Positions 28,434 through 34,875 of a DNA stretch of 64,000 nucleotides are shown piece by piece. A model generated the notes under the pieces. The model was not told where the DNA came from and searched no databases. It saw nothing but the letters and a program-made list of their open reading frames with translations. Each line of letters starts with the position of its first letter. The stretch's first letter is position 1. Source of the stretch: Patescibacteria group bacterium (GTDB lineage: Bacteria; Patescibacteriota; Minisyncoccia; Phycocordibacterales; PALSA-1337). The DNA is taken from positions 47,244 through 111,243 of the forward strand of contig JAGWLA010000001.1 in NCBI GenBank assembly GCA_028865095.1, read 5' to 3'. The position numbers and the translations under genes were made by a program.

Positions 28434-28590
28434 CCATCCTCGATGACAGCCGCCGCCGACAGCTCCTCCAAGGGGCATCACCCCACATTCTCGTTCATCG
28501 CCAGGAACCTCAAAAGCCTGGTCGAGATGTTCATAGAGATGATCGTCGGCACCAAATAACGGGGCGCGGGAGGTTATCCGCACTGCGAAG

Positions 28591-28611
28591 GGGCGGCTAT
28601 GCCGCCTTTTT
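28591..28611 (+). terminator. Intrinsic terminator after rplB
   Basis: GGCGGC-TAT-GCCGCC followed by TTTTT. Confidence 0.55.
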
Positions 28612-28613
28612 GA

Positions 28614-28619
28614 TATACT
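28614..28619 (+). promoter_or_regulatory. TATACT -10 box 7 nt upstream of ATG 28627 (HlyD gene)
   Basis: GATATACTTGAGGGCATG. Confidence 0.4.
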
Positions 28620-28626
28620 TGAGGGC

Positions 28627-30153
28627 ATGAAAAAATCTCGCTATCGTCTTCTCAAGAACAAATGGGCGATCGCTGCAGCGGTGGTCGTCCTGATCGTCGT
28701 CGGCTATGCCTGGTCGAGAGGGAAGAGCGCTGCTCCGGCCTTCCAGACGGCGCCCGTAGCCGTCGGCGACGTCATCCAGCGCGTTTCCGTGACCGGCACC
28801 GTCTTGCCCGACCAGAAGACGGACCTGGCTTTCGAGAAAGGGGGGACGATAGCGGCCATAGACGTCAGCGTAGGCGACGCGGTCAAAGCCGGCGATCCCA
28901 TCGCGTCCCTCGACAGCTCCGCCGACCGGGCGGCGCTCGACAGCGCTCAGGCCACGCTCGCAGACATGTCCCGGAGCCTCACTCCCGCCGAGCTCGCCGT
29001 CCAGCAAGCGGCCGTCGATTCCGCCAAGACGGCGCTCGGCAATGCCCAACAGTCGGCGCTGGTCGCTTTCCATACCGCATACATCCAAGCCCAAGGAGCG
29101 GAGGTCAATTATGCCGATACGTTCTTCAATAACCCGCAGAGCGCCAATCCCACCATCGACATCCGCACCGAGTCGGCTACCCAGCAGCTCGCCATCAACA
29201 ACGAGCGCGTCTCCGTCTCCGATGTCCTGAACAAATGGTCGAGCCGCTTGGCGGCGGCTTCAACGACGGGCGCATCCGGCCTCATGGAAGAGGCTAACGG
29301 CTATCTGTCGACGATGAAGTCGTTCTTCGCCGACCTCTCCGCCATCGTCAACGCCTTGTCGCCGGGGAATTCCGGGCTGTCCCAGTCCGTCATCGATGCC
29401 GATACGGCCGCCATGAATTCGGGCAGGTCGGCCCTCAATGCGGCCGTCAGCACCGTCACGTCCGCCCAGACGGGGCTGACATCTGCCCAGGCCGCTTATG
29501 ATCAGGCAGTGTCCAGCTACAACCTGAAGCTGGCCGGCAATTCAGCCGATTCCATCGCCGCCCAAGCGGCGAAGGTCGCCCAGGCCAAAGCCATACTCGG
29601 CCAGGACGCCCTCGTCGCGCCCATCGACGGCATCGTCACTCTCGTCGGCCCGCAGATCGGCGACTATGTCGGAGCCGGGCAGACTCAGTTCACCATCCAG
29701 AACAGCCAGTTCAAAGTCGAAGCCTATGTGCCGGAAGCCGATATCGCCAAGGTCAAAGTAGGGGACATGGCCTCCAGCACGCTCGACGCGTACGGGGCGT
29801 TCACCGATTTCCCGGCGACGGTCGTCTCCATCGACCCGGCGGAGACCGTCCTTGAAGGGGTGCCGACATACAAAGTCACGCTCCATTTCGTCTCTCCCGA
29901 CAGCCGCATCAGGTCCGGCATGACGGTCAATCTGGAGATATTGACGGCCGAAGCCTTGGGGGTGACCGAAGTGCCGTATCGCTCGCTCGCCATCGGCGCC
30001 ACATCGACGACGGTCAATCTCGTCAGCCCCGACGGCAAAAGCTACTCCAGCGTCCCGGTGACCATCGGCCTGAAAGGGTCCGACGGGACGGTCGAGGTCA
30101 CTTCTGGCCTCAAGGAGGGCGATCGGGTGGTGACCTATATACCGGGCAAATGA
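28627..30153 (+). CDS. HlyD/MacA-family periplasmic adaptor (membrane fusion protein)
   Basis: N-terminal TM anchor, long coiled-coil region and beta-barrel-like C-terminus. Lies upstream of a MacB-type ABC pair. Confidence 0.75.
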   Translation: MKKSRYRLLKNKWAIAAAVVVLIVVGYAWSRGKSAAPAFQTAPVAVGDVIQRVSVTGTVLPDQKTDLAFEKGGTIAAIDVSVGDAVKAGDPIASLDSSADRAALDSAQATLADMSRSLTPAELAVQQAAVDSAKTALGNAQQSALVAFHTAYIQAQGAEVNYADTFFNNPQSANPTIDIRTESATQQLAINNERVSVSDVLNKWSSRLAAASTTGASGLMEEANGYLSTMKSFFADLSAIVNALSPGNSGLSQSVIDADTAAMNSGRSALNAAVSTVTSAQTGLTSAQAAYDQAVSSYNLKLAGNSADSIAAQAAKVAQAKAILGQDALVAPIDGIVTLVGPQIGDYVGAGQTQFTIQNSQFKVEAYVPEADIAKVKVGDMASSTLDAYGAFTDFPATVVSIDPAETVLEGVPTYKVTLHFVSPDSRIRSGMTVNLEILTAEALGVTEVPYRSLAIGATSTTVNLVSPDGKSYSSVPVTIGLKGSDGTVEVTSGLKEGDRVVTYIPGK

Positions 30154-30163
30154 GCGGCATGAA

Positions 30164-32434: not shown

Positions 32435-32442
32435 ATGTTTCA

Positions 32443-32471
32443 ATTATAGCACTTTATTACTATATAGTCAA
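32443..32471 (-). promoter_or_regulatory. Sigma-70-type promoter TTGACT-N17-TATAAT in an AT-rich divergent intergenic region
   Basis: Minus-strand reading GGCGCTATTGACTATATAGTAATAAAGTGCTATAATTGAAACATATG. Confidence 0.5.
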
Positions 32472-32581
32472 TAGCGCCTATTGACATCTGCTTATTCCGC
32501 CAGTAGTCTTCGGAGAGACACGGCATCGGCAGTCTGTGTCTACAGCCATAACTGCCATCACAATCAAATAACGGAGCATAT

Positions 32582-33898
32582 ATGCCAGTACTATCTGACA
32601 GTTTCTTGTCGTTCCTCTGCACGAATGTCCCTGCGTTGGGGCGACGGTTCGGGGATCCATTCATCATCCACCACGGTCCTGAGATACGGGAGCGCGTGCG
32701 GATGACCAACGCCGCATTCAGCCAGGAAGGCTTGGATTTCACCGAGCTCTTCGCCGTGAAGGCGAACCCGCGGCTCCAGATCTGCGAGGGCTTCATCTGT
32801 TCCGAAGGGGCAGGGACTGACTGCAGCTCGGAGGCAGAGCTCATGTTCTCCCAAGAGATCGGCGTGCCGCCTGAGCGCATCATGCTCAGCGCGAACAACG
32901 TCCCGCAGAAGCTCTACCGGCTCGCGCAGCTCATCGGCTGCCATATCAATCTCGACGATCTGACATGCGTCCGCAAGGTCCCGGACCCGTTCCCGGCCAC
33001 GATCTGTTGCCGCCTCAATCCGGGGAAGGTCCTTCTGCCCGGAGAAGAGACGGGTCAGATCGAGTTCAGCAAAGAGGGGGCCAAGTTCGGCATGTCGCCG
33101 GAAGATCTCATGGAAGCTTGGCGGATCGCGATAGAGGAGCGAAAGGCCGAAGCGATCGGGATACACTCGATGGTCTTGTCGAACAACCTCGACCATCGAA
33201 AAGCAGTGCCGGTCATCCAGATGGAATTCGACCTCCTCTCCGAAGGGGTACAGAAGTTCGGGGTCCCCGGCGCATACGTCAATATCGGGGGAGGCCTCGG
33301 CATCCCGTACCGTCCAGGCGATCCGGACTACGACGTCCCCGCTTTGGCCCGCGAATGCGCGCGCATCGCCGCCGGCTTCGAGAAGAAGCACGGCTACAAG
33401 CCGAAGATATACATGGAGAGCGGCCGGTTCATGACCGGCCCGTCGGGGGTCCTGGTGAACAGGATCGAGAACGTCTATACGAAATACGGCCGCCGGTTCC
33501 TCGGCGTCCCGATCGCCATGCACGCGGTCCCCCGGGTCATGCTGTACCCAGGCGAGGCATATCATCACCACATCATCCTCGGCCCCGACGGCGCCATCAA
33601 AGGCGGGCCGCTCGACAGGGTCAGCATCGTCGGAAGGGCATGCGAGGACAACGATCGGCTCTGCACCGATGAGCCGCTTCCTCATGCCGAGGAAGGGGAC
33701 TATGTCCTCACATGCAGCGCCGGCGCCCATTGCGTCGATCAGGGCTCCGATTATAATTGGCAGCTCAAGCCCCAAGAATTGCTGATCAGGGACCATGGAA
33801 CCGTACGCCGGATCTGCCTTCCGCAGACATATGAGGGGCTCACGGCCCGGCAGAGGGATCTCGGCGGTTCGGAGCATGCGCTCTATCTCGGCCGGTGA
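32582..33898 (+). CDS. PLP-dependent decarboxylase of the Orn/DAP/Arg decarboxylase fold (LysA/NspC-like)
   Basis: FAVKANPRLQICEG...CSSEAE (PLP-Lys region) and C-terminal GDYVLTCSAGAHCVDQGSDYN resemble diaminopimelate decarboxylase family proteins. Confidence 0.65.
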   Translation: MPVLSDSFLSFLCTNVPALGRRFGDPFIIHHGPEIRERVRMTNAAFSQEGLDFTELFAVKANPRLQICEGFICSEGAGTDCSSEAELMFSQEIGVPPERIMLSANNVPQKLYRLAQLIGCHINLDDLTCVRKVPDPFPATICCRLNPGKVLLPGEETGQIEFSKEGAKFGMSPEDLMEAWRIAIEERKAEAIGIHSMVLSNNLDHRKAVPVIQMEFDLLSEGVQKFGVPGAYVNIGGGLGIPYRPGDPDYDVPALARECARIAAGFEKKHGYKPKIYMESGRFMTGPSGVLVNRIENVYTKYGRRFLGVPIAMHAVPRVMLYPGEAYHHHIILGPDGAIKGGPLDRVSIVGRACEDNDRLCTDEPLPHAEEGDYVLTCSAGAHCVDQGSDYNWQLKPQELLIRDHGTVRRICLPQTYEGLTARQRDLGGSEHALYLGR

Positions 33899-33967
33899 AG
33901 CCGGATATGCCCCCCCCCCGCGTTGTCAGGACATCGGTCCCGGCAGCGCTTTTTTCGTCAAAACCCT

Positions 33968-34798
33968 CTACTTCCTCATCCTCGGCAAGACGACGCTGAA
34001 AGTCGAGCCGCGGCCGGGCCCGTCGGAATAGGCTTCGATGGCGCCGCCATGCCTGCGGACGACGGAGCGGGCCAGGAAGAGAGCTACGCCGAATCCTTCG
34101 GTGTCCATGGCGCGCGCGTCATCCGCCCGGAAGAATTTGGTGAACAGGCGCGACTGGTCGGCGGGGGAGATGCCGATGCCGTAGTCGGTGACCGAGAAGA
34201 CCGCTTTGCGGCCGCGCGCCGATACGCGCACTTCCACGTTGCGGCCGGGAGGGCTGTATCGGCAGGCGTTGTCAAGGAGGACGCCGAGGACGAAGTCGAG
34301 CCGCGACCGGTCGGCCTTGACCCATATGCTGTCGGCAGGGTGGTCGGCGGCGATGAAGAGGTTCTTCTCGTGGAAAGCGCGCTTCGAGGCTTCGACGGCC
34401 GATTCCGCCATGGCGCACAAGTCGAGCTTCTCCCAGGAATACGCCGATAGCGGCGAGCGATCCGATTCGGTCAGCTCGAGAAGGGTGCTGGTCAGGCTGA
34501 TGAGGTCTTCGTTGGACGACCTGATGTCCTGGAGGCTCTCTTTGCGGTACGGGTTCGTCTCGTCGGAGACGAGGCTGTCGGCGGCCCATTTGATATGGGT
34601 GAGGGGAGTGCGGAACTTGTGGGCGATGATGGTGACGAACTCATACCGGGCTTTCTCGCCCCTGCGCAAGGTGCGGATAAGGGCCGCCATGGCCGCTACG
34701 GCCGCGGCTACGGCGATGACGACGACAGCGGCTTCAGCGATGGCAAGGCTCGATCCTGTGAGGTCCATGAGCTTATTATACCCTTGTCGCCGCGGCAT
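33968..34798 (-). CDS. Sensor histidine kinase (single TM, HisKA + HATPase_c); no adjacent response regulator
   Basis: H-box [12 protein letters not shown] and ATPase motifs DNACRYS and [11 protein letters not shown]. Start may be MDLTGSS at 34768. Confidence 0.75.
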
Positions 34799-34875
34799 CC
34801 CAGGGGATATCCTTGACTCGAAAACACGGCTCTGCTACTATGCGATGAAGCTCCTCGGGGCTGATTTTCTTTCTA

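Follow-up and report, generated by a model that had tools for sequence, protein, structure and literature searches.

Why is the ribosomal gene cluster of a Patescibacteria group bacterium interrupted between rplB and rpsS, and do the genes that lie in this gap belong together? The locus that raises these questions is a part of a 64,000-nucleotide (nt) stretch of contig JAGWLA010000001.1 (hereafter the window). The genes of the tuf-S10-spc cluster follow one another there in the order tuf (24160), rpsJ, rplC, rplD, rplW and rplB (27579-28433), and the cluster is picked up again at rpsS (34875), to continue through rplV and rpsC to rplE (end 38446). The gap between the end of rplB and the start of rpsS amounts to 6441 nt, in DNA of about 62% GC, and comprises four independent transcription units: a three-gene operon of an export pump, the gene of a small membrane protein of 76 amino acids (aa), a decarboxylase gene, and a histidine kinase gene. 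All the elements that a first-pass annotation of the window had placed in this gap were recovered, where it had placed them, with the use of Pfam and NCBIfam. They represent known families, and GenBank already has annotations for them; only the family of the small membrane protein is new. Taken as a whole, the locus is best explained as a clade-specific slot occupied by four units with the roles proposed below, an explanation to which we lean with moderate confidence.

To place the interruption in context, 80 related loci (designated here by L numbers) were retrieved via rplB, and the genes of the window were compared with them by tblastn. The distance between rplB and rpsS is 22-173 nt in 27 of the 30 distant relatives (those with rplB identity of 81% or less), which agrees with the earlier description of the gap as an insertion. 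The closer relatives, three loci excepted, have gaps of 825-8527 nt with variable cargo. Pump genes occupy the gap of 14 loci; 27 loci have the kinase gene there, and 4 have that of the decarboxylase. Pump, decarboxylase, and kinase have been gained and lost independently among these relatives, and the treatment of the four units as a single block in the first-pass annotation had to be abandoned. The GC content of third codon positions (GC3) is 0.79-0.88 in the genes of the block vs. 0.78-0.90 in the flanking ribosomal genes, and the overall GC content matches likewise. Neither the gene list nor the Pfam scan of the block genes revealed an integrase, a transposase, a recombinase, or flanking repeats. 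Because GC and GC3 match those of the flanking ribosomal genes, the block does not appear to be a recent foreign acquisition, and the native GC3, the lack of a recombinase gene, and the pattern of gaps in relatives together argue for a long-standing slot and not a fresh insertion. Judging from this comparison, the rplB|rpsS junction is a long-standing, clade-specific variable slot of the S10 operon in Taylorbacteria-like Patescibacteria.

Further cargo of the slot in relatives includes alpha-2-macroglobulin with penicillin-binding protein PBP1, a DEAD-box helicase, a reverse transcriptase, large PKD/TIG surface proteins, and a transporter of the major facilitator superfamily. For instance, the slot of L008 (11133-19277) encodes a 2089-aa bacterial alpha-2-macroglobulin beside a class A penicillin-binding protein; the two form a known envelope-defence gene pair. 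By its rplB (92% identity), L002 counts among the two closest relatives, and its slot encodes, directly upstream of the pump, a reverse transcriptase of 355 aa (RVT_1; 12528-13595). In some relatives (5 complete loci and 2-3 partial ones), the orthologous pump is instead located between rplC and rplD. In these loci (L018, L027, L045, L047, and L058, and also L043 and L011), it has the same orientation as the ribosomal genes, and the kinase gene is still located ahead of rpsS.

The 76-aa protein is encoded on the minus strand (32204-32434, ATG at 32434; GenBank KGI69_00385 of the 236,652-bp contig) and has a predicted transmembrane (TM) helix at residues 7-25. Its gene is preceded by the promoter TTGACT-17-(TGc)TATAAT (32443-32471, minus strand) and followed by an intrinsic terminator of a 12-bp stem and a T-run, situated between the convergent stop codons (32155-32182, minus strand; fold energy -29.8 kcal/mol, z = -5.0). 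In a scan of both strands of the 64 kb, this promoter was the sole 11/12 match, all others reaching 10/12 at most; thus, the claim that the strongest sigma-70 promoter of the window precedes an open reading frame (ORF) of 76 aa on the opposite strand was borne out. By the 8-nt spacing between the -10 hexamer and the ATG (8-9 nt in five homologues) and the absence of a Shine-Dalgarno (SD) sequence, the start is a candidate leaderless one. What does not stand in the initial emphasis on a leaderless textbook promoter is the weight put on the leaderless start, which is common in this genome and does not distinguish the gene. Back-to-back with this promoter, a perfect TTGACA is followed after 17 nt by TAGTCT (32482-32510, plus strand). 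This site, read by eye and under the threshold of the promoter scanner, may be a divergent promoter of the decarboxylase gene, with a leader of about 65 nt, a GACAC...GTGTC hairpin, and GGAG before the ATG.

While a word-based protein search with the single sequence of the small protein found only the query itself, tblastn against the 80 related loci revealed a homologue in L075, whose place and orientation are those of the window gene, directly behind the permease gene of the pump. The TTGACT/TGnTATAAT promoter recurs in L075, with 9 nt between the -10 hexamer and the ATG, and the gene has a terminator of its own. A profile of these two sequences, compared with 1.84 billion representative proteins, retrieved 8 small proteins of 71-84 aa (E 4e-42 to 9e-5), and a word search with the alignment of eight members added two more, giving ten homologues in total. 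The members have in common a hydrophobic helix at the N-terminus, the conserved loop A(A/T)xxLNPxLPKxGxGKKxKxGGD, and, at the C-terminus, a basic amphipathic helix of FWxIVxAPFR type. In a codon-aware alignment, the mismatch at codon positions 1, 2, and 3 is 0.47, 0.39, and 0.62, respectively, the third position varying most; 525 of 1009 pairs of identical residues are encoded by different codons, in host loci of 43-65% GC. This pattern of mismatches and synonymous codons indicates selection on the protein and not on an RNA. The promoter with the ATG 8-9 nt after the -10 hexamer is retained in six of nine loci (the window, L075, L082, L086, L087, and L088), L081 and L083 have short leaders, and a terminator hairpin follows most homologues with readable downstream sequence. 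No match to the small protein was found in Pfam, NCBIfam, or PHROG, nor to any other family member in Pfam or PHROG. Based on its homologues, coding-type substitutions, and conserved promoter, ATG, and terminator, the small ORF, proposed as a gene at first sight, is a real gene and represents a new family.

The distribution of charges in the family is uniform. In all ten members, the N-terminal flank has a net charge of -1 to 0, and the hydrophobic helix is of at least 19 residues with a mean hydropathy of 2.2-2.75. The net charge of the tail in the ten members is +8 to +12, that of its first 15 residues being +1 to +5; the tail of the window protein has +12. According to the positive-inside rule, membrane proteins retain positively charged flanks on the cytoplasmic side. 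Because of the charge pattern and this rule, the small protein is predicted to be a single-pass membrane anchor with the N-terminus out and the basic tail in the cytoplasm, in an orientation opposite to that dictated by a Sec signal. An AlphaFold (AF2) model obtained with the family alignment comprises a helix (residues 3-26), a non-helical conserved loop (27-43), and a second helix (44-74), and at its low confidence (pLDDT of 62) it should be treated as a sketch only.

The pump operon, on the plus strand, starts with the gene of a 508-aa MacA/HlyD-type adaptor (28627-30153), which is predicted to be anchored in the membrane by an N-terminal TM helix. The adaptor matches Pfam HlyD_3 and HlyD_D23 and exceeds the cut-off of RND_mfp TIGR01730 (151.7 bits vs. 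94.9). Its best solved relative is MacA (5nik_D, 8e-16), Spr0693 being only distant (5xu0_A, 2e-4). The next gene (30164-30904) encodes, as a separate polypeptide of 246 aa, an ATP-binding cassette (ABC) ATPase of the MacB/LolD/FtsE class (ABC_tran, 6e-36, 124.5 bits), which scores 223-243 bits with the LolD, MacB, and DarD models, each time under the equivalog cut-off, and 206 bits with the lactococcin-972-type ABC model, also under the cut-off of that model. The third gene (30906-32144) encodes a 412-aa MacB-type permease (type VII ABC) with four TM helices and an extracytoplasmic domain. Both its Pfam matches exceed the cut-offs (MacB_PCD, 5.7e-38, 131.7 bits; FtsX, 5.8e-23, 81.6 bits), and the MacB periplasmic core domain is located between TM1 and TM2, with the FtsX domain at the C-terminus, as in members of the MacB family. 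The structures most similar to the permease are those of MacB (5gko, 2.5e-61; 5nik_J, 5e-55; 5lil, 3e-54), followed further down by Spr0695 (5xu1_M, 4e-42), the YknZ domain (7e-7), and LolF (1e-6).

With 10 nt between the adaptor and ATPase genes and 1 nt between the ATPase and permease genes, the tight MacAB-like operon recognized in the first-pass annotation was fully confirmed, as was its start right after the rplB terminator. The latter is a terminator-like hairpin GAAGGGGCGGC-UAU-GCCGCCUUUUU with a T-run (28586-28612, plus strand), seen both in the sequence and in the RNA fold, which closes the rpsJ-rplB transcription unit 14 nt ahead of the adaptor ATG. An extended -10 element TGaTATACT (28611-28619, plus strand), 7 nt before this ATG, is a candidate leaderless promoter of the operon, which would thus be transcribed as a leaderless mRNA straight after the rplB terminator. 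The E. coli MacB and MacA equivalogs (NF007826, NF008606) were missed by a wide distance (222.9-227.4 bits vs. 966, and 73.1 bits vs. 342). By these scores and its domain layout, the pump is a member of the MacB family with an adaptor, and not an orthologue of the E. coli MacB/MacA proteins. A lipoprotein-sorting LolCDE identity was rejected: the permease scores 222.9 bits with the NCBIfam MacB model but 41.9 bits with LolCE TIGR02212 (cut-off 362), its match to LolF (1e-6) is far behind that to MacB (2.5e-61), and an adaptor gene, absent from Lol systems, is present. The first-pass annotation had named a LolCDE-type exporter together with a non-conserved small ORF as the outcome that would contradict it; the permease turned out to be of MacB type and the small ORF to be conserved. 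In L007, which encodes the pump most similar to that of the window, the adaptor, ATPase, and permease genes do not abut as they do elsewhere but are separated by additional ORFs of 203, 187, and 159 aa (11357-14321).

As to the question whether the small gene and the pump belong together, the contigs of seven homologues were readable and could be compared with the window genes, that of L087 being too short for context. In six of the seven readable downstream contexts (the window, L075, L081, L083/84, L086, and L088), the small gene is tail-to-tail with the permease gene, so that its positional link to the exporter, as first noticed in the window alone, is upheld. The order in L081 is rplB, adaptor, ATPase, permease, convergent small gene, a 311-aa gene, kinase, and rpsS, i.e., the layout of the window with a different gene at the position of the decarboxylase. 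In L083/84 and L086, the pump is followed by the convergent small gene, and in L088 the permease gene, the small gene, and rpsS succeed one another with no other gene between. In L082, the small gene is located beside rplB, and the pump is replaced by a 343-aa gene with no assigned function, while in L085 the small gene, there with an SD sequence, is located beside infB and rbfA. In a neighbour-joining tree of the permeases (with no support values), the loci that contain the small gene fall on three separate branches, which suggests an old pairing of the small gene and the pump, followed by several losses.

Directly upstream of the small gene and co-oriented with it, five loci encode large proteins without a Pfam match (L075, 6123-7316; L087, 1-1260; L082, 1-858; L086, 2-511; L081, 8884-9819), and a Pfam scan of the genes neighbouring the small-gene homologues gave no match. 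These large proteins are homologous in pairs (33% for L075 and L087, 80% for L082 and L086) and have no counterpart in the window. That of L081 has a PEP-CTERM-like end, consisting of VPDTTSS, a hydrophobic stretch, and RRRQ.

From the conserved adjacency, we tentatively propose, as the likeliest specific role, that the small protein is a cytoplasm-facing accessory protein or modulator of the pump. A convergent leaderless monocistron with a strong promoter would yield a single-pass protein of 76 aa with its N-terminus out and its +12 tail in, which could touch the membrane or cytoplasmic parts of the pump in the manner of AcrZ, VraH, or YknW. Several observations weigh against this proposal. 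The small protein is tied to the pump by gene position; the two are convergent and separately transcribed, unlike true subunits, for which co-transcription is the rule. A pump but no small gene is found in many relatives (L002, L006, L014, L019, L021, and L076), and the small gene occurs without an adjacent pump in L082 and in another context in L085. All the loci belong to one clade, so that shared descent could explain the adjacency, and the low confidence of the AF2 model adds to these reservations.

Most of these observations favour the main alternative, which is somewhat doubtful but has to be taken seriously, namely that the small protein and the pump are functionally unrelated. The former would be an abundant clade-specific membrane protein, for instance a basic anchor binding nucleic acid, ribosomes, or lipid, that shares with the permease gene an inherited neighbourhood and a terminator. 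The convergent arrangement, with a promoter and a terminator belonging to the small gene, is what would be expected in such a case, and so is the occurrence of each partner without the other in relatives drawn from a single clade. The co-oriented gene of a large protein upstream of the small gene is conserved too (between L075 and L087, and between L082 and L086). What speaks for the accessory role is that, while the rest of the gap turns over freely, the junction of the permease gene and the small gene is kept in six of seven contexts, on three branches of the permease tree, and at 43-65% GC.

A broader version of the accessory role can also be formulated, in which the 71-84-aa 'LNPxLPKxGxGKK' proteins are an undescribed, Patescibacteria-specific partner of MacAB-like pumps, and the junctions rplB|rpsS and rplC|rplD of this clade's S10 operon would have become preferred docking sites where envelope-defence genes come under ribosome-linked expression. 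The partner would be a cytoplasm-facing gating micro-subunit or, in bolder terms, a cationic peptide that depends on the pump and is directed by these episymbionts at hosts or competitors. We consider this version unlikely.

The first-pass annotation had itself suggested an exported toxin or bacteriocin-like peptide handled by the exporter, a suggestion that our results speak against. In its general form, with the small protein as a secreted or membrane-active cationic peptide that the pump exports or to which it gives immunity, it would parallel the AS-48EFGH, YknWXYZ/SDP, and lactococcin 972 transporters. MacB-type pumps with adaptors shield Gram-positive producers of SDP and AS-48 from their own peptides (PMC5985334). 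The sub-cut-off score of the ATPase with the lactococcin-972-type model points in the same direction, and so do the cationic amphipathic helix past the conserved GGD, which in several members has many Trp and Phe residues, the pair of small residues (A-A) after the hydrophobic segment, the strong promoter, and the conserved adjacency to the pump. However, no member has a positively charged n-region, the N-terminal flank being uncharged or acidic and the tail basic, and the charge pattern predicts the opposite topology. There is no double-glycine leader architecture, the ATPase is without a C39 domain, and neither a C39 peptidase nor a modification enzyme or immunity gene was found in the block with Pfam and NCBIfam. 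The gene forms a separate convergent transcription unit and is missing in most pump-bearing relatives, and constitutive leaderless expression of a self-toxic peptide, with no immunity gene visible, would be odd. The secreted peptide is therefore disfavoured, and we regard it as improbable.

Some more specific identities of the small protein were rejected. A membrane toxin of a type I toxin-antitoxin system does not fit the predicted leaderless mRNA (ATG 8 nt after the -10 hexamer), which has no long 5' untranslated region, and Rfam finds no RNA in the region, although an unannotated antisense RNA may exist. LPK-x-G is not likely to be a sortase signal, even with a sortase gene at 38791-39432, as its fourth position is variable and never Thr, and as the motif follows the TM helix, on the predicted cytoplasmic side. 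GG-D as a double-glycine cleavage site would lack a C39 transporter and would have the TM helix for a leader, and a type IV pilin-like N-terminus is contradicted by the lack of conservation of the Glu position.

The kinase of the gap is encoded on the minus strand (33968-34798) and is a minimal histidine kinase of 276 aa, with a short N-terminal stub, one TM helix, HisKA (37.6 bits) and HATPase_c (85.6 bits) domains, both over the Pfam cut-offs, and no sensor domain. Its orthologues are encoded beside rpsS on the opposite strand in 27 related loci, with or without the pump, and share the stub, the single TM helix, a roughly 12-residue linker, the H-box AHKFRTPLT, and the lack of a sensor domain. 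Six response-regulator queries, among them PhoB, CheY, Spo0F, and Patescibacteria regulators, revealed no receiver domain anywhere in the 64 kb, in accordance with the orphan status first ascribed to the kinase; its partner regulator would be encoded elsewhere.

A Bce-like sensing and detoxification module, in which the kinase responds to the activity of the type VII ABC transporter, perhaps via the small protein, would make sense of a kinase that has one TM helix and no sensor domain and so must sense through the membrane or a partner. BceS-type kinases depend on the MacB-related BceAB transporters (PMC5985334), and in about 12 relatives the pump and the kinase are both in or near the S10 operon. 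Nevertheless, at least 10 loci have the kinase with no pump within 10 kb, at least four have the pump with no kinase, and L088, with its permease gene, small gene, and rpsS, has no kinase. As the presence of the kinase does not depend on that of the pump, such coupling is unlikely. The window lacks the set of features that marks BceRS-BceAB systems (a 10-TM permease, a 2-TM kinase, an adjacent regulator, and no adaptor): its 412-aa permease is of the 4-TM MacB type with an adaptor and not of the 10-TM BceB type, and no response regulator is encoded nearby. We regard a Bce-like module as quite improbable.

Very improbable is a recent transfer of the whole block as a mobile island into the S10 operon: the interruption of a usually contiguous operon, the highly variable cargo in relatives, and the reverse transcriptase in the gap of L002 would suit it, but it was rejected on composition and orthologue distribution, since the block genes include no integrase or transposase and have no flanking repeats, their GC and GC3 are indistinguishable from those of the adjoining core genes, and orthologues of the pump, kinase, and decarboxylase occupy the same slot in dozens of species, with identities that roughly follow relatedness.

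The remaining unit encodes, on the plus strand (32582-33898), a fold-III pyridoxal phosphate (PLP) decarboxylase of 438 aa (Pfam Orn_Arg_deC_N and Orn_DAP_Arg_deC; GenBank MDE2037671.1, 'diaminopimelate decarboxylase'), as expected for the PLP decarboxylase of the diaminopimelate (DAP)/ornithine family called in the first place. Classification with hidden Markov models places it nearest to LysA and not to NspC: no NspC model was matched in the NCBIfam scan, SpeA reached 37 bits, and ornithine decarboxylase (ODC) structures matched at 3e-7 or weaker. Its best structures are LysA (2p3e, 1.3e-31) and then BtrK. In the alignment with LysA (2p3e, 3vab), the motifs AVKAN (with the PLP-lysine), GGGLG, ESGR, PRVMLY, and CEDND line up, their roles being assigned by analogy with LysA and ODC structures. 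Orthologues in the same slot (L025, L038, L044, and L049) are 33-41% identical to it and score 217-232 bits with the lysA model, also under the cut-off. In L025 and L044, the decarboxylase gene follows that of a class I/II aminotransferase, which matches LL-DAP aminotransferase models best, though below their thresholds. The enzyme reads as a divergent DAP-decarboxylase lineage and probably makes lysine from meso-DAP, which might be salvaged. Two points count against this role, namely the score with lysA TIGR01048, which is the best NCBIfam family but at 193.1 bits remains under the cut-off of 297.9, and, with respect to the substrate, the replacement of the HIGSQ motif by MVLSN in the window enzyme and by MVCSN (HTMVCSN) in its relatives.

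The start signals of the block are typical of the genome. In the window, an SD-like tetramer precedes 6 of 62 confident gene starts vs. 18.5% of random positions, while a TAnnnT hexamer 5-10 nt upstream is found at 13 of the 62, the pump operon included, vs. 2.3% of random positions. The pump operon has the layout of hairpin, T-run, TGaTATACT, 7 nt, and ATG, and that of adk at 48811 is the same. Many gene starts (e.g., 5894, 7187, 28627, 44245, 48811, 51068, 55250, and 63579) have an extended -10 element 5-10 nt before the ATG, in many cases directly behind the terminator of the previous unit. As indicated by these signals, leaderless, SD-less starts are the norm in this genome. The anti-SD motif is reported to be absent in about half of Parcubacteria, and the few SD sequences and many leaderless starts observed here are in line with this loss (PMC9297842). 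The promoter of the small gene is set apart only by the added consensus -35 hexamer, which suggests high constitutive expression. On the other side of the gap, a promoter-like site TTGACT-17-(TGc)TACTAT (34813-34841, plus strand) is located 33 nt before the rpsS ATG at 34875, and rpsS and the downstream genes may restart from it. An Rfam scan of the block (gathering or E <= 1 thresholds) revealed no RNA family, and in particular no lysine riboswitch ahead of the decarboxylase gene and no small RNA at the small gene.

Outside the gap, the ribosomal cluster of the window has a second break of 6.5 kb, between rplE and rpsH (38447-45002). Its cargo comprises the sortase (38791-39432) and a PKD/fn3 surface protein of 606 aa (40021-41841), both on the minus strand, a sigma factor of extracytoplasmic function type (42138-42674), a DUF5667 protein (42667-43773), and a zincin-like peptidase (44245-44634), and no rpsN gene was seen in this region. 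The island at this break is envelope-related, as is that between rplB and rpsS. A tRNA-Ile gene with the anticodon TAT is located at 61183-61257; as AUA is decoded in most bacteria by a lysidine-modified CAU tRNA, it may point to another strategy of AUA decoding. A tmRNA gene was identified at 55706-56071 by Rfam (RF00023, 106 bits), while ARAGORN made no call.

Our results leave the understanding of the component families unchanged, and the interest of the island is a local one, since it does not represent a new type of system. They do indicate that a ribosomal operon supposed to be rigid tolerates, throughout a clade, a variable gene slot at two junctions, and that promoter-proximal leaderless starts are a routine expression signal, which matters for gene calling and small-protein discovery in these genomes. 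Patescibacteria cannot be grown alone. If the small protein works with the pump, it would offer a first handle on envelope defence in these bacteria and would be a third, unrelated example, after VraH and YknW, of the control of MacB-superfamily transporters by micro-proteins.

Among known systems, LysA enzymes (TIGR01048; 2p3e, 3vab, 2yxx, 1twi, 1hkv) are the closest to the decarboxylase, which has the same two-domain fold-III architecture, aligns with them in the PLP-lysine, Gly-rich loop, EPGR-like, R...Y, and C-E motifs, and differs from them in its score (193 bits vs. 297.9), in the change of HIGSQ to MVLSN, and in the identity of 33-41% even to its same-slot orthologues. The kinase resembles the BceS/LiaS intramembrane-sensing kinases in having HisKA and HATPase_c and no extracytoplasmic sensor domain; however, its single TM helix contrasts with their two, it lacks a HAMP domain, an adjacent regulator, and a BceAB-type transporter, and it is conserved beside rpsS.

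MacAB-TolC of E. coli and A. baumannii provides the best sequence matches for the permease and the adaptor, with the same Pfam architecture. While in MacB the ATPase is fused to the permease, the pump of the window consists of two separate polypeptides, and a TolC-type duct, for which no search was made, is not expected in a monoderm Patescibacterium. In organization, the pump is comparable to the Gram-positive YknXYZ and SpMacAB, with an ATPase dimer, a 4-TM permease, and a membrane-anchored adaptor, and with no outer membrane expected. Spr0693-0694-0695 of S. pneumoniae (SpMacAB; PMC5768738), Bacillus YknWXYZ, and E. faecalis AS-48EFGH have the same three genes in one operon, with the HlyD/MacA adaptor anchored in the membrane, the ATPase as a polypeptide of its own, and the MacB periplasmic core domain in a 4-TM permease, likewise in hosts without an outer membrane. 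By analogy with SpMacAB and YknXYZ, from which both the mechanism and the substrate class are inferred, the pump may clear the outer face of the membrane of peptides or amphiphiles by mechanotransmission. At 508 aa, its adaptor is longer, and it is only distantly similar to Spr0693; in place of a 4-TM partner of the YknW or AS-48E type, there is the convergent gene of a single-TM protein of 76 aa; and, unlike all three operons, that of the window is embedded in the S10 ribosomal operon.

For the proposed accessory role of the small protein, the nearest parallels are AcrZ, a small membrane protein modulating AcrB, and two partners of MacB-type pumps. VraH (of VraDE) and YknW (of YknXYZ) are small or extra membrane partners that act on MacB-superfamily transporters (PMC5985334). 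Like these, the small protein of the window is short, is encoded beside the pump, and has no enzymatic domain. It has no sequence similarity to them, as it matches no Pfam or PHROG family, and its gene differs from theirs in being convergent with the pump and separately transcribed. Finally, while VraH has two TM helices and YknW four, the protein of the window combines one TM helix with a long basic tail.

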